Shown in pieces: positions 1-15,935 of a stretch of DNA of 18,045 nucleotides. Below the pieces are notes generated by a model that had not been told where the DNA came from, made no database searches, and worked only from the letters and a program-made list of their open reading frames with translations. The DNA lies in contig JAWLBU010000052.1 of assembly GCA_041687555.1 (NCBI GenBank), positions 1 through 18,045 on the forward strand, in the 5' to 3' direction. This stretch comes from Haloplasmataceae bacterium (GTDB lineage: Bacteria > Bacillota_I > Bacilli_A > Haloplasmatales > Haloplasmataceae). Positions within the stretch are counted from its first letter, which is position 1. Each line of letters starts with the position of its first letter. The translations under genes and the position numbers were made by a program.

Positions 1-185
1 ATCTCGCTTATAACTTAAACGAACCGCCGTATACCGAACGGTACGTACGGTGGTGTGAGAGGTCGGTAAATAAAATAATTATTTACCTCCTACTCGATTG
101 TGAGATACTAATAAAGGTTAAGTTTTTGAATAAATAGAAATTATTCTCTTATAAAGATGGAAAATTTGAAGTTTATTCATAATTC

Positions 186-2432: not shown

Positions 2433-2488
2433 ATCATAAATTTTTGTAGGAATAATAAAATGTAATATTGGGATTAGAGGTGATGCGG

Positions 2489-3814
2489 ATGAATAATTCA
2501 TTTTATAAGAAATCGATACTTGTCATAATCACTAATATTACAACGGGGATCTTAGGTTTTATGTTTTCCATAATTTTATCGAAAAAGATTGGACCTGAAG
2601 GAATGGGATTATACAGCTTGGTATCACCTATCAGTAATCTTCTATTCAGTATTCTATCCGGCGGATTATTACTTGCCACATCAAAAGTAGTGGCTGAGTA
2701 TTATGCGAAAAAAGAACTGGGAAATTTGCATAAGAGCATCAAAACCACCGTTATTTTTAATCTGATATGCTCGTTAATAGTTATTTCAATTGCTTTTTTA
2801 TTCTCGTATTCGATAAGTTTTTATTTGATAAAAGATATCAGAACACTTACCGCTTTTCGTTTTATCTTAATATCAATAATCTTTATGACGATGTCAAATA
2901 CCTATAAAGGATATTTTTACGGTACCACCAACGTTTTTGTTCCGGCATTTATCGATGTTGTGGAAAAGGTATTGCGCGTACTGCTTTTAATTATCGTGTT
3001 CAAATATTTACCTTCAATCTCAATTGAATCCTTAATAACCATTACATTTTTACTTTTTTTTATCGGTGAAGTTAATTCCTTCATTTTATTGGTAATATAC
3101 TATCATCTTGATAAAAGGGCACATCCGAAAACAACGGAAAGAATCGAGGATGCCCTTCAACTGTTGTATAATGTGTTTTCGATTTCCGTACCGTTAATGA
3201 TCACGGAACTGATCGGCTCTTCGTTATATACTGTTTCATCACTCATGTTACCAAGGAGACTTATCGCAAGCGGAAGAACTTACAATGAAGCCTTAAGCCT
3301 GATTGGTCGATTTGGCAGTATGTCGGCACAAATCGTTTTTTTTCCGATGCTCATCATTTTTTCCGTTACAACCTTGTTAATACCCGATTTATCAAGCAGT
3401 ATCGTAAAACAGGATGTTTATACGGCGCGAAAACGAATTTCTCAGATGATAAAAATCGCGATCATTTTAGGAATAACTGTCTTTTTAATCTGTTTTACCT
3501 TGGGTGATGAACTGGGTTATCTTATTTTCAAACGAAATGATTTGGGGGCTTATATCCGTTTTCTCTCCTTCTGTGCTCCGGTAATATATACTTCACAGGC
3601 AACACGAAGTATCTTAAACGGTATGGGAAAACAAAAATATATTTTAAAGTCAACTTTTATCATATCGGTAATTCAAACCGTTTTTCTCTATGTGTTGGTG
3701 GGAATTCCGAATATTAATATTTATGGATACGGAATCACCATTTTAGTTACGACCTTTATAGGGTTTATCTTAAATATCAGAGAAATTGACAAAGTTATTC
3801 ATTTTAAATTATAA
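2489..3814 (+). CDS. spoVB: SpoVB-family polysaccharide/peptidoglycan-precursor flippase (MOP/MATE-like superfamily, 12-14 TM)
   Basis: Segments resemble Bacillus subtilis SpoVB as I recall it: GPEGMGLYSLVSP, SKVVAEYYAKK, YKGYFYGTTNVFVPAFIDVVEKVLRV. Polytopic membrane protein. The start is placed at the ATG 6 nt after GAGGTG. The ORF track's TTG at 2468 and the ATG at 2483 are alternatives. Confidence 0.75.
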   Translation: MNNSFYKKSILVIITNITTGILGFMFSIILSKKIGPEGMGLYSLVSPISNLLFSILSGGLLLATSKVVAEYYAKKELGNLHKSIKTTVIFNLICSLIVISIAFLFSYSISFYLIKDIRTLTAFRFILISIIFMTMSNTYKGYFYGTTNVFVPAFIDVVEKVLRVLLLIIVFKYLPSISIESLITITFLLFFIGEVNSFILLVIYYHLDKRAHPKTTERIEDALQLLYNVFSISVPLMITELIGSSLYTVSSLMLPRRLIASGRTYNEALSLIGRFGSMSAQIVFFPMLIIFSVTTLLIPDLSSSIVKQDVYTARKRISQMIKIAIILGITVFLICFTLGDELGYLIFKRNDLGAYIRFLSFCAPVIYTSQATRSILNGMGKQKYILKSTFIISVIQTVFLYVLVGIPNINIYGYGITILVTTFIGFILNIREIDKVIHFKL

Positions 3815-3849
3815 ATTATATATAAAACATTACGATTACATGATATAAT
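3786..3849 (+). promoter_or_regulatory. Promoter region for the GGDEF/HD-GYP gene: TTGACA (3786-3791), 18-nt spacer, TATAAA (3810-3815), and an extended -10 TGATATAAT (3841-3849)
   Basis: Consensus hexamers read directly. Both lie upstream of the preferred start codon at 3882. Confidence 0.45.
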
Positions 3850-3881
3850 TGTTTATGAAACCCATCAAAGGAAGTGTTAGT

Positions 3882-6470
3882 ATGAAGGATTGTAGTGAAT
3901 TGTTGGATTATGCCAATATCGGATATGTCCTATGTGAATTAAAAAAGGAAAATGAAATTATAAAATGTCCGATTATTGAATATAATCAGATTTTTATGCA
4001 GTTTTTTGGTCAGGGACAACATATGGAAAGCGACTTAATTCAGTTGTTAATTAATATAAAAACAATATCGCCTGATTTTTTAGCTGAATGTGAAACAAAA
4101 TTAAGTAAAAAAGAAGGTTTCAGCTCGTTTGTTTATTCACTACAGTTAAAACAGTGGATGCAATTAGAAGTGGCGTATCTGGAAAATAATCGGGTTATCG
4201 TTTATGCCAAACCAATACCTTCATCCTTTGTACCGTCTGATAAATTAAGCAAGGCCCAATTGTTTAATAACAATTATATTGAGGAAATAAACAATGTTTT
4301 ACTGGCCATGAATGAATTATTAATTAATTCATTTGCCGAGGAGAATTTATTCAAGGGATTAGGTTTAACCGGTCAGGCTTTTGTGATAGATAAAATTACG
4401 ATGTTTAAGTTAACTGACAATACAGTAAATAAATTGACAGAATGGAAAAATGATAAGTATCCCGTGGATGATAAAGAGTTGAATTATGATAATGATGTTA
4501 TCCAGGTGCTCAAGGAAGAACTTAAACATAAACCATATTTTTGCTCTACAGAAAGTAAAAGAGATATCCTAACCAGGTTTTTTACGGATTTACAGATTAA
4601 AGCTTCAACAATCATACCAATCATCGTAAAAAATTCCTTATGGGGATTTTTACAGCTCGATGACTACAAATTAGAACGGATTTGGTTGGATGACGAGCTA
4701 TATTTACTACAGCTCTTAACCAGTACCATTTCTAAAGAAATTGAACGGAAATTGACGGAACAAGAGGTTGAAAACTTAAGTTATCGCGATAGCTTAACGG
4801 GATTATATAATCGTCGTTATTTTGAGATTTGTTTTAAGAATTTGGATACGGAGATCAATTTGCCCATATCAATCATTGTGGGAGATGTGAATGGTCTAAA
4901 ATTAGTCAATGATGCGTTCGGTCACACAAGCGGTGATGATCTTCTAAAGGAAGCTGCTAAGGTGATTTTAGATGAATGTTCTGATAATGATATTATCGCC
5001 AGGTGGGGCGGAGATGAATTTATCTTTCTTCTACCAAACACAAGCCTAACCGAGGCGCACAATTTAATTAACCGGATTAAGGAAAAGGGGAAAAAGACGA
5101 TCGTTCATTCCATTCCTATTTCCATATCTTTTGGCGTGGATACTAAGGAAAATCCGGATACGGAATTAGATAAGACGCTTAAAAAAGCGGAAGATGTTAT
5201 GTATCAACAGAAATTAATTGAAAGTGCGGTCATTAAAAAACAAAACATCAATTCGATAATGAAAGCCTTGTATGAACTGGCTCCGCTTGAAGAAGAACAT
5301 GCTAATCGGGTCAGTGAACTATGTGCGCAAATTGGACTAGCTAGAAACTTTGATCAGTATGGTATCCGTTATTTGAGAACAATCGGTTTATATCATGATA
5401 TCGGGAAAATCGGCATAGATAAAGAATTATTAAATAAGTCAGACAGTCTTACCAAAGAAGAATGGAAAGAAATGAAAAGACATTGTGAGATTGGTTATCG
5501 TATTTTAAGCACATCAACCGAAATGGCGGAAATAGCCGACTGTGTGCTGCATCATCATGAGTTTATCAATGGGGAGGGATATCCCAACGGGCTAATCGGT
5601 GATGAAATTCCTATCATGACCAGAATTCTTAGCGTGGCTGAGGCCTATGATGAGATGTCCAGTCCGAGACCTTATAAGAAAATAATGTCTGAAGAGGAAA
5701 TAATCGCTGAATTAATCAACAATTCGGCAACGCAGTTTGATCATAATATTGTTCGGACATTTGTGGAAAAGGTCCTACGGAAGCCATGGTACAGTGTCAT
5801 CCGGGGAGCAAATAATACGGTGATCACTCTCGGACAGAATTTTGACCCCCTACATGGAGTTTCGATTCATGATAGTAATGATGAAAATTTATCGATAAAA
5901 GATTTACAGATTATCGGCAGTGTGGATGTGAACAAAACCGGCAATTACAGTATTATTTACAGTATCACAAACAAATACGGACAGACGGAAAGGTTGTTAA
6001 GAAAAGTTTCCGTGGGTATTTTGCGGGAAATCCTCAGTCCGGACTTAAATGCATTTCACAAGATTCAAATCGAAGGCTCTGATTTTTCCTATGAAAATGA
6101 GGATGAAACGATAAAAATAAGATTAATCAAAGGCGGAAGAAATGTTTGGTCTGCCCAACTCGTTTATCCACACTTAAATTTGGTTAAAGGGAAGGAATAT
6201 GTTCTTTCTTTTGAGGCGTTTTCCAACCAATGCCGTAAGGAAATGCACATCAGTATCGGATGGAACGATTTTGAAAACAATTACTGGCATTCCTTTTTAA
6301 GTACCGTTGATAATAAGTATTACTTATCAAAATCACCGCAAACCTATAAATTAATGTTTAAGATGAATAACGATTCTAGAGTAAATTCTGACTTAAAATT
6401 CGAATTCGGAACGGGTGAAAATAGCGAAATCGGCATCAAAAACATCCATGTATATGAGTATATTAAATAA
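3882..6470 (+). CDS. Multidomain c-di-GMP signalling protein: PAS/GAF-like N-terminal region, GGDEF diguanylate cyclase, HD-GYP phosphodiesterase, and a C-terminal Ig-like (DUF5011-like) plus CBM_4_9-like beta-sandwich module
   Basis: AAAGGAAG Shine-Dalgarno 7 nt before the ATG at 3882. The track's ATG at 3849 has no Shine-Dalgarno and overlaps the -10. DxLTGLYNRRYF, RWGGDEF (5007-5021), YHDIGK (5394-5399) and HHHEFINGEGYP (5550-5585) are read from the translation. The C-terminal VDVNKTGNYSIIYSITNKYGQT and VWSAQL...LVKGKEYVLSFEAFS patterns are typical of Ig-like and CBM folds. No signal peptide or TM helix. Confidence 0.85.
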   Translation: MKDCSELLDYANIGYVLCELKKENEIIKCPIIEYNQIFMQFFGQGQHMESDLIQLLINIKTISPDFLAECETKLSKKEGFSSFVYSLQLKQWMQLEVAYLENNRVIVYAKPIPSSFVPSDKLSKAQLFNNNYIEEINNVLLAMNELLINSFAEENLFKGLGLTGQAFVIDKITMFKLTDNTVNKLTEWKNDKYPVDDKELNYDNDVIQVLKEELKHKPYFCSTESKRDILTRFFTDLQIKASTIIPIIVKNSLWGFLQLDDYKLERIWLDDELYLLQLLTSTISKEIERKLTEQEVENLSYRDSLTGLYNRRYFEICFKNLDTEINLPISIIVGDVNGLKLVNDAFGHTSGDDLLKEAAKVILDECSDNDIIARWGGDEFIFLLPNTSLTEAHNLINRIKEKGKKTIVHSIPISISFGVDTKENPDTELDKTLKKAEDVMYQQKLIESAVIKKQNINSIMKALYELAPLEEEHANRVSELCAQIGLARNFDQYGIRYLRTIGLYHDIGKIGIDKELLNKSDSLTKEEWKEMKRHCEIGYRILSTSTEMAEIADCVLHHHEFINGEGYPNGLIGDEIPIMTRILSVAEAYDEMSSPRPYKKIMSEEEIIAELINNSATQFDHNIVRTFVEKVLRKPWYSVIRGANNTVITLGQNFDPLHGVSIHDSNDENLSIKDLQIIGSVDVNKTGNYSIIYSITNKYGQTERLLRKVSVGILREILSPDLNAFHKIQIEGSDFSYENEDETIKIRLIKGGRNVWSAQLVYPHLNLVKGKEYVLSFEAFSNQCRKEMHISIGWNDFENNYWHSFLSTVDNKYYLSKSPQTYKLMFKMNNDSRVNSDLKFEFGTGENSEIGIKNIHVYEYIK

Positions 6471-6497
6471 AAATGCTTCAATTGAAGCATTTTTTTT
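6471..6497. terminator. Bidirectional intrinsic terminator shared by convergent genes: A-run, 22-nt perfect palindrome AAATGCTTCAATTGAAGCATTT, T-run
   Basis: It directly follows the stop at 6470 on plus. On minus it follows the TAA of the 64-aa small ORF at 6496-6498. Confidence 0.7.
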
Positions 6498-6690
6498 ACG
6501 CTAAACATATCAGTAAAAGAAAAAATCCGATTAACGACATAATCCACACCCAAGGTCTGAAATACCACGGTGTTAAATAAAATCTTCTCCTACAAAAACA
6601 GCACCTCCTTACAGGATACCCGTACCATGGTCGAAAGCGTCTGTAATATAGATATTTTTGAAATACACCTAGGCCTCTGTATCTCCACAT
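6496..6690 (-). CDS. Small hypothetical protein, 64 aa, extremely Arg/Tyr/Trp/Phe/Cys-rich with a hydrophobic C-terminal tail (MWRYRGLGVFQKYLYYRRFRPWYGYPVRRCCFCRRRFYLTPWYFRPWVWIMSLIGFFLLLICLA)
   Basis: On minus, an internal ATG at 6690 is preceded by AGAGGTG with 5-nt spacing. The 83-aa track version starts at a GTG with no Shine-Dalgarno. The ORF ends exactly at the bidirectional terminator. Composition parallels the neighbouring 52-aa ORF. Local GC is raised, consistent with Arg/Pro/Trp/Gly codons. No homology evidence. Confidence 0.35.
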   Translation of the reverse strand: MWRYRGLGVFQKYLYYRRFRPWYGYPVRRCCFCRRRFYLTPWYFRPWVWIMSLIGFFLLLICLA

Positions 6691-6762
6691 ACTATCACCT
6701 CTCGTATTATTATATGACTGCTTAAAGAATCTAATTGTGTGTATCACTTTACTTAAATGAAT

Positions 6763-6795
6763 AAGAATGACTTTTTCAAGTCATTCTTATTTTTA
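6763..6795 (+). terminator. Strong hairpin: AAGAATGACTT-tttc-AAGTCATTCTT, followed by ATTTTT on the plus strand
   Basis: 11-bp perfect stem with a 4-nt loop. It sits between the two minus-strand small ORFs. In plus orientation it looks like a terminator, yet no plus-strand gene lies upstream. Confidence 0.5.
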
Positions 6796-6799
6796 CATG

Positions 6800-6958
6800 C
6801 TAGAAGAACCCAAATAATAGACCAAAAGCGATACCTGAAGCAAATGCTTCAAAATCATGGCAGAAGAACCGATGATGAATGAATGGTCGGAAAGGTCTAC
6901 ATCTTATGGGTCGGCAGATGAAGCATGGGAAATTCCAGTCATGTCGACAAAATGACAT
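6800..6958 (-). CDS. Small hypothetical protein, 52 aa, Cys/Arg/Phe/Pro/His-rich with a hydrophobic C-terminal tail (MSFCRHDWNFPCFICRPIRCRPFRPFIHHRFFCHDFEAFASGIAFGLLFGFF)
   Basis: Not in the supplied track because it is under 60 aa. My own translation of the minus strand. AAGGTGAG Shine-Dalgarno 3-5 nt before the ATG at 6958. RPF/FRP repeats, a Cys cluster and a hydrophobic C-terminus resemble the 64-aa ORF downstream. Same strand as the 124-aa gene upstream. Confidence 0.3.
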   Translation of the reverse strand: MSFCRHDWNFPCFICRPIRCRPFRPFIHHRFFCHDFEAFASGIAFGLLFGFF

Positions 6959-7071
6959 AATCTCACCTTCTTTCGCAATATATGTTAATATATGTCTTTT
7001 TTGCTAATCGAGGATGTATTCATTTCCTTTAAAGACTTAAAATAATAACTCTATATCATAGACAGAAGATG

Positions 7072-7129: not shown

Positions 7130-7504
7130 TTATGTTATTCCTGCAATTCCGGAAGGAGTTTCAAGGAGGGCATTATCCTGCTTAAGTGTTGCTTTGATTA
7201 AGTAAATTGCCGCAAGTACGGAAAAAAGTCGGCTTATCAGTAAATCCTTGGCAGAGCTAATACTAATGGGGTCCACATAGTCTTTGCGATTAATTAAATC
7301 GTCATAATTTTTTTTCGCAATACCTAAATCGATAAAAGCCGATATGGATGCCATATAAACGGCTATAATCAACACTTTGTTGGCTTTATTATTATTTTTT
7401 TGTTCACGTCTTTCAATGATCGATGACTGGATAGATAGAATTTCCCCGATTAATGATAAAAAAGAGCTGATATCGTCTAAACGTTCTAGTTCTTCATTAG
7501 CCAT
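7130..7504 (-). CDS. Hypothetical protein, 124 aa, acidic N-terminus, one central hydrophobic segment (VLIIAVYMASISAFIDLGI), amphipathic C-terminus
   Basis: AGGAAG Shine-Dalgarno 7 nt upstream of the ATG on minus. An extended -10 TGTTATATT lies further upstream. No motif I can assign to a named family. Confidence 0.6.
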   Translation of the reverse strand: MANEELERLDDISSFLSLIGEILSIQSSIIERREQKNNNKANKVLIIAVYMASISAFIDLGIAKKNYDDLINRKDYVDPISISSAKDLLISRLFSVLAAIYLIKATLKQDNALLETPSGIAGIT

Positions 7505-7655
7505 GTTTTCACTTCCTAAAAACTATACTAATATAACATATTAGAAAAATGAAAAAATGAATAGGTTAAAGAAATAGATGTTTAAATAAAAATTAACGCA
7601 AAGCGTATTTTTGCAGATGTTTATGCATAATATAAAGGGGAAAGAGTGTTTAACT

Positions 7656-7683
7656 TTGCATTTATGTTAATATTTGGTATAAT
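7656..7683 (+). promoter_or_regulatory. Promoter of the ferredoxin gene: TTTGCA -35-like and extended -10 TGGTATAAT (7675-7683)
   Basis: Read from the sequence. Shine-Dalgarno AAAGGAA at 7707-7713, then ATG at 7721. Confidence 0.45.
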
Positions 7684-7720
7684 TAAACAAACAAGATTGG
7701 AAAATGAAAGGAATGGTAAA

Positions 7721-7915
7721 ATGAAAGGTTTTGTAGATAAGAATACATGTATAGGATGTGGATTATGTCCGACCATTTGCCCTGATATATTTCGCATGGA
7801 TGATGACGGTTTAGCAGTTGCGGAAGATATTGAAATTCCTGATAATATATTAGCCGATGCTCAAGAAGCGGCAGAATCCTGCCCGGTAGCAGCAATAACT
7901 GTTGATAATATGTAA
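7721..7915 (+). CDS. fer: Small [4Fe-4S] ferredoxin (64 aa), Bacillus Fer-like
   Basis: CIGCGLC...CP motif (CxxCxxC plus a distal CP) and an acidic C-terminal half, comparable to B. subtilis Fer. The Shine-Dalgarno-supported start is at 7721. The longer N-terminal extension in the ORF track has no ribosome-binding site. Confidence 0.8.
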   Translation: MKGFVDKNTCIGCGLCPTICPDIFRMDDDGLAVAEDIEIPDNILADAQEAAESCPVAAITVDNM

Positions 7916-12549: not shown

Positions 12550-12569
12550 TTTTACATTATGCTTATTAG

Positions 12570-12578
12570 TGATATAAT
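12570..12578 (+). promoter_or_regulatory. Extended -10 element TGATATAAT upstream of the 368-aa gene
   Basis: Read from the sequence. The -35 is weak (TTTTAC/TTTACA). Confidence 0.35.
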
Positions 12579-12674
12579 TATTTTAAAATATGGAGTAATT
12601 AATTAAAAAAATCATAAAAATGTAAATTATTGGGAAAATATGAATATATTAAAAAGAAATAAGGAGATGAATAT

Positions 12675-13781
12675 ATGCGAGTAATAAAATGGTTCTTTAT
12701 TCTTTCTTTTATCGTCGTTATCGGAATTCCGTCCGCAGTAATCGGTGCTGCCCTGATAAAAGACGAAAAACCTCCTGCCTATTTAAGTGAAGTGGATCTT
12801 AATGAATTTGACGGTGAAGAAGCTATTTTAGCCGAATTAGATAAGTTTATCATTCAATTTATTTCGGGAGATCAAAGTATCACTCTTGATGAAAAAACGG
12901 TCAATAAATTAATTTATGCAAACTACCATGGCTTTAAAGACGATAAAACAAAAATAGTCGTTAATGATGACATAGTTATTCATATCGAGGGCTTTTGGAC
13001 TGATTTTGAAAATGATGAATTAACATTATATACAATTTTACGCAATGGTAAAGTTAGTACTTCTTTAACTTTAAAAGCCAAAATTACGACATCCGAAGAT
13101 AGTTTATCAATCGAATTTGAAAGATTTAAGATTGGGAAACTTCCTATACCGAACAGTGTTTTTGTTACTTTATTAGATAATTATGGGTCATCAATTACTA
13201 GTGAATATGAATATGGAACAATAGATACCGAAAAATTAATCATTACGGTCGACAAAGAATATATTCAGGACGAATTGGAAAAGGCTATGAACAGCAACCT
13301 GATCTTATTTGATAGTTTAGTTTTTCAGAAGAATCAGTTGGTTATTAATTGCGATTTAAATGCCGAAATTAATCCCGATGCTGCCGTTTTACTTGAAACA
13401 ATAGATGAGATTAAAAGAATCGTAAATGATGATTCATTATTAAATAATGTCAAAAATAGATTAGATGATGATGACTTGACAGCGGATGAAAAGAATAAGG
13501 TAGATGATTTCATTGATGAGTTAACGGAATTTAATGAAATCATTAAAAGTAAAATCGAAAATCCTACGGGTGTAAGTGCTGATGATTTAGAAACAATAAA
13601 CGGTTTACAGGATAAATTTAACGATATTCCTGAAAGCAGTAAACAGGAAGTAGTTTTAGCACTTGAAGAAAGTATCGATCCCAATATCAAGGAACAATTA
13701 TTAGAAACTTTGGAATCTTTAGGTATTTCAGGTTTTGAAAATGTATCCGATTTAATATTTGGCACGGGTTCGTCAAAATAA
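12675..13781 (+). CDS. Hypothetical membrane-anchored protein, 368 aa. It has an N-terminal signal-anchor helix, a large extracytoplasmic domain and a very acidic C-terminal third.
   Basis: AAGGAG Shine-Dalgarno 8 nt upstream. N-terminal WFFILSFIVVIGIPSAVIGAALI with no lipobox Cys. The remainder is hydrophilic and Asp/Glu-rich. Strong terminator downstream. Confidence 0.6.
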   Translation: MRVIKWFFILSFIVVIGIPSAVIGAALIKDEKPPAYLSEVDLNEFDGEEAILAELDKFIIQFISGDQSITLDEKTVNKLIYANYHGFKDDKTKIVVNDDIVIHIEGFWTDFENDELTLYTILRNGKVSTSLTLKAKITTSEDSLSIEFERFKIGKLPIPNSVFVTLLDNYGSSITSEYEYGTIDTEKLIITVDKEYIQDELEKAMNSNLILFDSLVFQKNQLVINCDLNAEINPDAAVLLETIDEIKRIVNDDSLLNNVKNRLDDDDLTADEKNKVDDFIDELTEFNEIIKSKIENPTGVSADDLETINGLQDKFNDIPESSKQEVVLALEESIDPNIKEQLLETLESLGISGFENVSDLIFGTGSSK

Positions 13782-13790
13782 ACAAAAATG

Positions 13791-13823
13791 AAACAAATTC
13801 TAAATTTTAGAATTTGTTTTTTT
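13791..13823 (+). terminator. Intrinsic terminator: AAACAAATTCTAAA / TTTAGAATTTGTTT palindrome plus T7
   Basis: About 12-bp stem followed by a T-run, 10 nt after the stop. Confidence 0.7.
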
Positions 13824-13843
13824 AATGTTATTATTTTCATATA

Positions 13844-13872
13844 TTTACTAATATCCCACATTATGGTATAAT
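13844..13872 (+). promoter_or_regulatory. Promoter of the NfeD-flotillin operon: TTTACT, 17-nt spacer, extended -10 TGGTATAAT
   Basis: Read from the sequence. AAGGGGG Shine-Dalgarno 7 nt before the ATG at 13900. Confidence 0.5.
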
Positions 13873-14508: not shown

Positions 14509-15935
14509 TTATTTTAACAGTTGATACTTTTGTACCGCTCATTATCATTTTTGCGATTGTGGCTATGATTGTCTTTGTCTTTGTCATGAGTCGTTATCGC
14601 AGATGTCCTGCAGACAAAATCTTAGTTATTTATGGTAAGGTTGGTAGAGGTACGGAAGGTGATTCACGTAGTGCTCGTTGTATTCATGGAGGTGCGGCAT
14701 TTGTTTGGCCGGTAATTCAAGATTATAAATATATGGATTTAACTCCGATGTCAATTGAAGTAAATCTTACAAATGCTTTAAGTAGACAAAATATCCGTGT
14801 GGATGTACCAAGCAGATTTACTGTCGGTATTTCTACCGAAGTGGGCGTTATGCAAAACGCTGCTGAACGTTTATTAGGGTTAAGTCATAATGATATAAAG
14901 GCTTTGGCAAGCGATATATTATTTGGACAATTACGTTTGGTAATTGCGACAATGGATATTGAGGAAATTAATGCTGACCGTGATATGTTCTTGGCTAACG
15001 TTTCGAAAAACGTTGAACAGGAATTAAAGAAAATCGGATTAAAATTAATTAACGTAAACGTAACTGACATCATGGATGAATCAGGTTATATTGAAGCATT
15101 AGGAAAAGAAGCTGCTGCCAAGGCAATTAACGATGCTCGTAAATCCGTGGCGGAAAAAACCCGTGACGGTTCGATTGGTGAAGCCAATGCTAATCAGGAA
15201 GAACGTGTAAAAGTTGCCGAAGCAAACGCGGCTGCAGTTCAAGGGGAAAACGAAGCTAGAATCCTAATCGCAAACTCAGAGGCCAACCGTCGTGAAAAAG
15301 CCGCCATAGCGGAAAGAGTAGCGACCGCGGCTGAGAATGTTCAAAAAGCTAAAGCTTTGGAAGAATCATATTTGGCTGAAGAAAATGCCGAAATCGCTCG
15401 TGCAAAAAGAGAAAGAGCTACTTTGGAAGCTGATGCCATTGTTAAAGCCGAAATAGACAAACAAAAAGTGGAAATTGCGGCCGAGGCTGAAGCTGAGAGA
15501 ATCAGACGTCAGGCTAAAGGGGAAGCCGATGCTATTCTGTTTAGGATGCAAGCACAGGCTGACGGTCTTAATGCTATCTTGACTAAGCAAGCGCAAGGTT
15601 TTGCCGAATTAGTCAGAGCAGCCGGAGGAGATCCACAAGCAGCTATTTCCATGATGATTACGGATAAATTGCCTGAACTTGTTAAGACACAAGTTGAAGC
15701 TATCAAAGGTATTAAGATTGATAAAGTAACTGTTTGGGATAACTTGGGCAAAGATGGTGACGGTTCGACATCAACCGCTAAATTCTTATCAGGACTGTTA
15801 AAATCATTACCACCGTTTGAGGACGTATTTAAGATGGCCGGAATGGAATTGCCAAAGTTCTTTAAAGGTAGTGAACAACAGGTTATCGAACAATCGGAAA
15901 AGCCTAAATCCGAAGTAGAAGAAACTGAAGAATAG
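14505..15935 (+). CDS. floT: Flotillin-like SPFH/band-7 protein (476 aa), FloT-like
   Basis: N-terminal membrane hairpin, SPFH domain, and a long Ala/Glu-rich coiled-coil (EA repeats). Comparable to B. subtilis FloT (YuaG) as I recall it. Local GC is higher than the surroundings. Confidence 0.85.
   Translation: MIILTVDTFVPLIIIFAIVAMIVFVFVMSRYRRCPADKILVIYGKVGRGTEGDSRSARCIHGGAAFVWPVIQDYKYMDLTPMSIEVNLTNALSRQNIRVDVPSRFTVGISTEVGVMQNAAERLLGLSHNDIKALASDILFGQLRLVIATMDIEEINADRDMFLANVSKNVEQELKKIGLKLINVNVTDIMDESGYIEALGKEAAAKAINDARKSVAEKTRDGSIGEANANQEERVKVAEANAAAVQGENEARILIANSEANRREKAAIAERVATAAENVQKAKALEESYLAEENAEIARAKRERATLEADAIVKAEIDKQKVEIAAEAEAERIRRQAKGEADAILFRMQAQADGLNAILTKQAQGFAELVRAAGGDPQAAISMMITDKLPELVKTQVEAIKGIKIDKVTVWDNLGKDGDGSTSTAKFLSGLLKSLPPFEDVFKMAGMELPKFFKGSEQQVIEQSEKPKSEVEETEE

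Follow-up and report, generated by a model that had tools for sequence, protein, structure and literature searches.

Are two very small, unannotated open reading frames (ORFs) on a bacterial contig real genes, and if so, what might their products do? The question arises from contig JAWLBU010000052.1 of a Haloplasmataceae bacterium (assembly GCA_041687555.1), whose 18,045 nucleotides were analysed as a whole and are here called the window. ORF1 (6958-6800, minus strand) specifies 52 amino acids (aa) and a stop, and ORF2 (6690-6496, minus strand) specifies 64 aa and a stop. The ORF1 product has a Cys/Arg/Phe-rich N-terminal part with a C-x-P-x-x-C-x-P core and then a C-terminal GxxxGxxxG hydrophobic helix, and the ORF2 product has a polycationic, aromatic N-terminal part with the motif YYRRxRPWYGYP and then a C-terminal transmembrane (TM) helix. 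Both had been put forward as paralogous-looking small genes of a sporeformer (hereafter the original prediction), with coordinates and translations that our re-translation matched exactly. We find that ORF1 and ORF2 are genuine protein-coding genes under purifying selection and are independently transcribed. Their coding status follows because their frames are open in seven of seven genomes, variation is concentrated at third codon positions, the ratio of nonsynonymous to synonymous differences per site (pN/pS) is ~0.47, and their proteins are as conserved as SpoVB.

Conservation and coding status of ORF1 and ORF2

The window alone could not decide whether the two ORFs are coding. Chance ORFs of 50-74 aa are common in it, with five between positions 5000 and 9000. 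Scored by the codon usage of the window's 15 real genes, ORF1 and ORF2 have log-odds of -0.24 to -0.48 bit per codon, while the real genes range from +0.15 to +0.50. Host-like codon usage is thus absent from both ORFs, and GC at the second codon position exceeds GC at the first (GC2 > GC1), the reverse of real genes. These features all favour the view that the ORFs are not genes and are instead chance ORFs, remnants of decayed genes, or a conserved structured RNA that raises the local GC content. An Rfam scan at E ≤ 1 found no family at ORF1 or ORF2 and no structured RNA that could account for the GC rise. The local rise itself, noted in the original prediction, is there (0.36-0.41 over the ORFs vs 0.27-0.31 in the flanking spacers), but it is ordinary coding-level GC for the window. 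The codon usage is unlike that of the host because the amino-acid composition of the two products is extreme.

With both peptides concatenated as the query, phmmer, run exhaustively against 1.84 billion representative proteins, returned P0002 (63 aa; 60% identical to ORF2, E 5.6e-15) and P0003 (50 aa; 51% identical to ORF1, E 5e-5). The genes for these proteins are adjacent on a metagenomic contig, L008, in the order and on the strand seen in the window and separated by 110 nt (109 nt in the window). Facing them is a convergent gene; its product shares 56% identity with the 448-aa protein of the window, which TIGR02900 identifies as SpoVB (413.8 bits, cut-off 372.3). This identification bears out the earlier claim that the host is a sporeformer, and the window's spoVB gene (2468-3814, plus strand) is the syntenic anchor for what follows. 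The nearest relatives of the window's SpoVB are 54-65% identical and include those of the cultured 'Mycoplasmatota bacterium' strain CP074573.1 (GCA_018394295.1) and of a Haloplasmataceae metagenome-assembled genome. Nine loci were fetched via SpoVB relatives and searched by tblastn for ORF1 and ORF2; both genes are also present in L011, L012, L013, L015 and L016, making seven genomes with the window and L008.

Gene order is the same in all seven genomes: spoVB is followed by at most one inserted gene and then, pointing back towards spoVB, by ORF2 and ORF1. The inserted gene encodes a GGDEF/HD-GYP protein in the window only and a Lactamase_B protein in L012 and L013, and there is none in L008, L011, L015 and L016; the spot between spoVB and ORF2 seems to be an insertion hot-spot. 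Beyond the pair there is usually a Phosphodiest gene, a homologue of the window's 124-aa conserved hypothetical gene, or both. The pair is conserved as a tandem by spoVB in an endospore-forming clade filed as 'Mycoplasmatota bacterium' (Haloplasmatales-like), and the two families are so far restricted to this one clade of spoVB-bearing 'Mycoplasmatota'-type genomes.

A Shine-Dalgarno (SD) site of the GGAGGTGAT type and a start codon stand at the homologous position in all copies, the ORF1 SD at the same distance throughout. In the window, the sites named in the original prediction are present 3 nt ahead of each ATG (AAGGTGAG at 6962-6969 for ORF1 and AGAGGTGAT at 6694-6702 for ORF2, both minus strand). 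Over the coding span none of the seven genomes has a stop in the proposed frame, every other frame is interrupted in at least one, and gaps in the protein-guided alignment leave the frame open in every genome. In protein-guided codon alignments of the seven genomes, mean identity at codon positions 1, 2 and 3 is 0.64/0.67/0.47 for ORF1 and 0.63/0.72/0.55 for ORF2, a codon periodicity with conservation lowest at the third position in 20 of 21 pairs for ORF1 and 15 of 21 for ORF2. pN/pS in the same alignments is 0.47 (ORF1) and 0.48 (ORF2), with pN at 0.30-0.33 and pS, near saturation, at 0.63-0.69; read one or two bases out of frame, the alignments give 0.97-1.40. Frame preservation and synonymous-biased substitution in relatives, to which the original prediction had pointed as checks, are thus both observed. 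Compared with L008, pN is 0.27-0.28 for the two ORFs (pS saturated, 0.67-0.76), 0.28 for the C-terminal half of SpoVB and 0.43 for the 124-aa neighbour.

Gene finders called 3 of the 14 copies, one of them QVK18652.1, a 'hypothetical protein', and none has a name beyond 'hypothetical'. That 11 copies were never called, and that a different frame was called in L012, could be taken as further signs that these are not genes; the genes were missed by standard annotation because their extreme composition defeats codon-usage models. Assembly duplication of one organism is excluded as the source of the homologous loci by protein identities of 49-65%, and six-frame translation gave no other coherent frame. 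With frames, start sites and substitution patterns all pointing the same way, we give almost no credence to chance ORFs, gene remnants or a structured RNA. The L012 call itself (12564-12731, minus strand; a 55-aa product beginning MLTWDITDTEDVAQLF) overlaps the ORF1 homologue in a frame that is broken in the other genomes, and it is probably a mis-call from the odd composition of the true frame. An alternative frame that looked protein-like by eye, and had raised the idea of a pseudogene, was dropped: it is interrupted by stops in all seven genomes, and conservation is confined to the ORF frames.

Two unrelated families of small proteins

The proposal that these are new small-protein families holds up. 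Pfam and NCBIfam scans of the window's ORF1 and ORF2 at E ≤ 1 gave no match, PHROG and PDB sequence searches found no relative of either family, a viral contig scan with ORF2 found none, and a word-index homology search returned nothing for either peptide, whose exact sequences are missing from a 15-billion-protein collection. The suggested paralogy of the two, on the other hand, has to be given up: BLASTP gives no alignment between them, and hhalign of the two profiles of seven sequences each (alignments A2 for the ORF1 family and A3 for the ORF2 family) puts the probability of a relation at 0.2%. ORF1 and ORF2 represent two unrelated, previously undescribed families that have only composition and architecture in common.

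Members of the ORF2 family are 57-64 aa long and have the invariant residues M1, W2, Y13, Y15-Y16-R17-R18, R20-P21-W22-Y23-G24-Y25-P26, R28, C31, R36 and P46, which include the invariant motif YYRR(F/Y)RPWYGYP. Each carries 9-13 Arg plus Lys and no Asp or Glu at all (12 and none in the window's ORF2), 7-11 Tyr and 3-6 Trp, for a pI of 9.9-10.8. The last 17-24 residues are uncharged, with a mean Kyte-Doolittle hydropathy of 2.1-2.8, and AlphaFold2 (AF2), run on two-sequence alignments, predicts a helix at residues 45-63 with a pLDDT of ~90. ORF1-family members are 48-60 aa long with 5-10 Cys each, and their invariant residues are C15, P17, C20, P22, F39, G42, G46 and G50. The core C-(R/K)-P-(I/V)-x-C-x-P, usually ICRPICCRP, is triplicated in L012, and the tail is a glycine-zipper helix, F-x-x-G-x-x-x-G-x-x-x-G, with AF2 placing a helix at residues 29-49 (pLDDT 60-78). 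Neither family has a signal peptide. By these predictions the ORF2 family, with its single C-terminal hydrophobic helix, would conform to the tail-anchor pattern, and the ORF1 family is borderline.

The FRP/RPW units and cysteine clusters that the original prediction listed as shared features are present, but conservation is limited to RPWYGYP and a second P-W/F in ORF2 and to C15, P17, C20 and P22 in ORF1. The ORF2 cluster RRCCFCRRR is there in the window, but most of its cysteines vary among relatives and C31 alone is invariant. One of the seven ORF1-family members, that of L012, matches Pfam Keratin_B2 (E 2e-4) via its CCRP repeats, which is compositional convergence with cross-linked matrix proteins and not membership.

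The YjcZ or 'tiny TM' proteins (PF09680, TIGR01732) of Bacillus and Clostridium are very small, sporulation-associated and often unannotated, and they too combine an N-terminal part rich in Gly, Tyr and Cys with a hydrophobic tail at the C-terminus. The L012 homologue of ORF1 (GYGGFGFGGGYGF...GLLFGFI) comes closest to them by composition, but the motifs CRPICCRP, GxxxGxxxG and YYRRFRPWYGYP set ORF1 and ORF2 apart, and the sequences are unrelated. Neither PF09680 nor TIGR01732 was matched by the seven ORF1-family members (Pfam and NCBIfam, E ≤ 5), nor PF09680 by the seven ORF2-family members (Pfam, E ≤ 5), nor TIGR01732 at E ≤ 1 by the window's ORF2, the member of its family scanned against NCBIfam. 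These are new families of a familiar kind, namely very small proteins of extreme composition, with a hydrophobic tail, that are encoded at a sporulation locus.

Arg/Trp/Pro-rich and Cys-rich compositions also recall cationic antimicrobial peptides. The products might accordingly be exported antimicrobial peptides, or precursors of bacteriocins or of ribosomally synthesized and post-translationally modified peptides, possibly leaving the cell via the upstream ABC transporter (245-1687). The 234-aa ATPase has its best NCBIfam matches to PmtA and lantibiotic-protection ABC proteins, although far below the cut-off (119.8 vs 350 bits), and one ORF1-family member has a faint daptide-precursor match (E 0.25). 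However, neither a leader nor a double-glycine motif is present in the peptides, the pair is not flanked by any maturase, radical-SAM, lanthipeptide, export or immunity gene in the seven loci, and spoVB and other genes separate the pair from the ABC genes at a variable distance. Furthermore, the terminal hydrophobic helix is among the most conserved segments, which is more like an anchor than a secreted core, and the cysteines of ORF2 are mostly unconserved. We consider such an antimicrobial or precursor role highly improbable.

Transcription signals and a putative place in the spore envelope

ORF1, ORF2 and the 124-aa gene are three transcription units and form no operon. ORF1 and ORF2 each have their own conserved promoter block, and between them lies a hairpin (6760-6791, minus strand; -16.1 kcal/mol, z = -7.2) that is the terminator of ORF1. 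Its stem, GAATGACTTG...AAGTCATTC, is kept in L008, L013 and L016, and L012 has a different hairpin in the same place. ORF2 ends, as had been predicted, at a bidirectional intrinsic terminator that it shares with the convergent GGDEF/HD-GYP gene (6469-6494; 11-bp stem, A-run and T-run flanks); the hairpin lies 1 nt past the ORF2 stop (6498-6496) and on its other side directly adjoins the stop codon of the 873-aa gene (end at 6470). The pair does lie downstream of the 124-aa gene and on the same strand, as the original prediction had it, but an operon linkage does not hold, because the 124-aa gene has its own terminator at 7102-7084 and ORF1 and ORF2 have their own promoter blocks. In L015 the ORF1-ORF2 spacer has grown to 387 nt (7502-7888) with extra hairpins, and it holds a called 67-aa ORF (7628-7831, minus strand) that has no counterpart in the other genomes.

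Short, cationic peptides with hydrophobic tails could also be toxic and membrane-active, either toxins of type I toxin-antitoxin systems or peptides of a holin-like or cannibalism type, with expression kept low. The strong flanking hairpins could terminate antisense transcripts either way, a weak promoter-like site lies antisense to the 5' end of ORF2 (6684-6713, plus strand), and annotation pipelines missed the genes as they miss type I toxins. Fst, TxpA, BsrG and the CD-type toxins of C. difficile are likewise shorter than 65 aa, with one hydrophobic helix and a charged region, and usually unannotated. ORF1 and ORF2 have the opposite polarity to most such toxins, however, with a long charged N-terminal part and the TM helix at the extreme C-terminus. 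They are single-copy and hold a fixed chromosomal synteny across 35-45% SpoVB divergence, their purifying selection is comparable to, and their protein conservation equal to, that of the housekeeping sporulation gene spoVB, and their SD sites are strong and unmasked in every genome. No antitoxin RNA among the known Rfam families was matched at E ≤ 1, and neither PHROG nor, for ORF2, the viral scan gave a relative. A toxin function is improbable on this evidence.

The promoter-like signals are all on the minus strand. Upstream of ORF1 is a -10-like box of the mother-cell sigma-E/K class, CATATATTA (6994-6986), identical in all seven genomes. In the seven-genome alignment a conserved box of the (G)TATACAnnCT type, ATACATCCT (7019-7011), stands 16 nt before it, and a further block, TGnTATAnA (7064-7043), resembles a sigma-A extended -10 and is a possible second promoter. 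The -10-like box of ORF2, CATATAATA (6716-6708), reads CATATnnTA in all seven genomes and CATATAnTA in six. It is preceded at 18 nt by a conserved (A)ACACAA box, ATAAACACAA (6742-6735). Five of the seven genomes have this box intact, L012 carries the diverged form ATACAAGAA, and L016 lacks it. A scan of both strands of eleven loci (~155 kb) placed the composite A(C/T)ACA-N17-22-CATATAnTA at 11 sites, all before these genes, and nowhere else.

Boxes of the CATATAAT/CATATATT type are the -10 elements of mapped C. difficile sigma-E/sigma-K promoters (PMC3789822), and the C. difficile sigma-K promoters CD1898 and CD2409 have the same -10 box as ORF1 (PMC3789822 Table S7). The sigma-K -10 element CATAnnnTA is matched before both ORF1 and ORF2 in all seven genomes. 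Mapped sigma-K promoters also have an 'AC' 16-18 nt upstream of CATA (PMC3789822 Table S7); ORF1 has an invariant C (7012) 17 nt upstream, at the position of the C in 'AC', with a preceding base that is not A. Assignment to sigma-G, sigma-F, sigma-E or sigma-A fails on spacing, and sigma-K fits the -10 boxes, with an imperfect fit at the -35 spacing. To judge by these motifs, the two promoters probably belong to a mother-cell sigma factor. The promoter of spoVB itself, TCATAnn-N13-AATAmAAT (within 2400-2468; conserved in L013, L015 and L016), is sigma-E-like, and therefore the mother-cell promoter geometry of this lineage matches that of Bacillus and Clostridioides.

In three genomes a third conserved gene, absent from the window, lies directly upstream of the ORF1 homologue (L011 12042-12500, L012 12881-13273 and L013 12833-13096, all minus strand), preceded by a canonical sigma-K-like AC-N17-CATAnnnTA promoter. 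Its product, without a Pfam match, starts with MNLLSFGLKNxGTIQ, continues in N/Q/Y/P-rich low-complexity repeats (NPYYN...) and ends in GNxFRNxF. It looks like another lineage-specific coat-type protein.

What, then, might ORF1 and ORF2 do? We favour, with middling confidence, the reading that their products are late-sporulation, membrane-anchored spore-envelope proteins. Four things speak for it: a neighbourhood of sporulation genes, the type of -10 box, a composition like that of coat proteins and the reported lack of most Bacillus-type coat genes. Sporulating lineages around Mycoplasmatales are without most Bacillus-type coat, small acid-soluble spore protein (SASP) and germination genes (PMC10868615). 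Both proteins would be made late in sporulation in the mother cell, from the sigma-E/K-type CATATAnTA promoters. The C-terminal helix would insert as a tail-anchor, leaving the N-terminus cytoplasmic by the positive-inside rule, in a membrane that faces the mother-cell cytoplasm, most plausibly the outer forespore membrane. The cationic aromatic domain of ORF2 and the Cys-rich, keratin-associated-protein-like domain of ORF1 could then serve as structural or nucleating components of the envelope, joined by disulfide or tyrosine cross-links or attached to anionic partners.

Low-complexity, Cys/Tyr/Arg/Pro-rich compositions like theirs are found in CotT, CotG and CotY/CotZ of B. subtilis, in CdeC/CdeM of C. 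difficile and in Keratin_B2 proteins. Such coat, exosporium and Keratin_B2 proteins work as cross-linked matrix, and ORF1 and ORF2 resemble them in sigma-K/E-like promoters and sporulation context, as does the L012 homologue of ORF1 in its CCRP-type repeats. There is no sequence homology, however, and the known coat proteins are without the terminal hydrophobic helix of the much shorter ORF1 and ORF2 products. SpoVM and CmpA are likewise tiny and without signal peptide, and forespore-facing membrane association and coat nucleation, as in our proposal, would be a further likeness. But SpoVM is a 26-aa amphipathic helix and ORF2 a putative tail-anchored polycation, with no similarity of sequence between them.

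Several observations weigh against a role in the spore envelope. The conserved ATACA box of ORF1 lies 20-21 nt and the AC of ORF2 20 nt upstream of CATA, as against 16-18 nt in mapped sigma-K promoters, so that the upstream-box spacing of both is 2-4 bp longer than canonical. CATATAnTA by itself is not rare at 33% GC: ~3 occurrences would be expected in a window, and 3 are present, of which the one at position 234 is irrelevant. The timing and compartment of expression are predictions from sequence motifs. The pair's place beside spoVB, a convergent rather than an operonic arrangement, could be a historical accident, and two SpoVB-bearing loci do not show the pair, within 10 kb beyond spoVB in L014 and ~4 kb in L017. 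The uncharged tail of the ORF1 family is 11-27 residues long, and in several members its 11-17 residues are a borderline length for crossing a membrane; AF2 gives the N-terminal domains of both proteins a pLDDT of ~50. L014 has a prophage after spoVB, and the sequence of L018 ends too early to judge whether the pair is present.

Alternatively, both could be small membrane proteins of general physiology, for example modulators of a membrane enzyme, transporter or signalling complex, with the position by spoVB a mere conserved synteny. Regulatory small membrane proteins typically have a C-terminal TM helix and a similarly small size, the sigma-A-like TGnTATAnA block is kept upstream of ORF1, the spacing of the upstream boxes departs from canonical sigma-K, and the neighbours vary (GGDEF/HD-GYP, Lactamase_B, Phosphodiest). 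Yet the extreme Arg/aromatic/Cys composition is unlike that of known regulatory small membrane proteins, a mother-cell-type -10 box precedes both genes in seven genomes, the cluster includes the coat-like N/Q/Y/P-rich gene with its canonical sigma-K-like promoter in three genomes, and the families have so far been seen only in spoVB-bearing genomes. We take general physiology to be possible but rather unlikely.

A more specific version of the spore-envelope proposal is more doubtful still. The families may be lineage-specific envelope building blocks in which ORF2 would coat the outer forespore membrane and nucleate assembly, and the CRPICCRP protein would lie over it as a keratin-like layer cross-linked by disulfides. 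Taken together with that layered arrangement, and with the same low likelihood, ORF2 might be a functional analogue of SpoVM/SpoIVA working on a different principle.

The pair consists of two conserved genes that are invisible to standard annotation, and it occurs in endospore-formers that lie on the branch to the wall-less mycoplasmas and largely lack the classical genes for coat, SASPs and germination (PMC10868615). Should the products be envelope components, they would open a first way into spore construction in this lineage, and a polycationic or Cys-rich head on a membrane tail would be a new architecture among spore morphogenetic proteins. Otherwise the pair still represents two new families of small membrane proteins, searchable by YYRRFRPWYGYP and CRPICCRP...GxxxGxxxG.

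Neighbouring genes and other features of the window

The 873-aa gene that converges with ORF2 (3849-6470, plus strand) has visible GGDEF and HHE...GYP motifs. It was rejected as a synteny anchor, since it found only domain-level relatives of 39-43% identity in genome and metagenome collections, and it is an insertion specific to the window. Its C-terminal ~230 residues have no match among the relatives found.

The 124-aa gene (7130-7504, minus strand), a frequent neighbour of the pair, has a promoter of its own in addition to its terminator. Its product belongs to a clade-specific conserved family at 35-50% identity, with members in L008 (105-485), L013 (~15443-15847), L015 (9462-9809) and L016 (9137-9511). 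The family has a sigma-A-like promoter with an extended -10, TGTTATAAT, and in most genomes the Phosphodiest gene separates the 124-aa gene from the pair.

At the start of the window, positions 22-98 (plus strand) match Rfam Intron_gpII (RF00029) at 47.7 bits, above the gathering score of 40. The match is to a group II intron's 3' catalytic domain, and the contig probably broke within this mobile intron. A 175-aa ORF at 13334-13861 (minus strand) is antisense to and overlaps a 368-aa gene (12675-13781); with a codon score of ~0, it is probably spurious.

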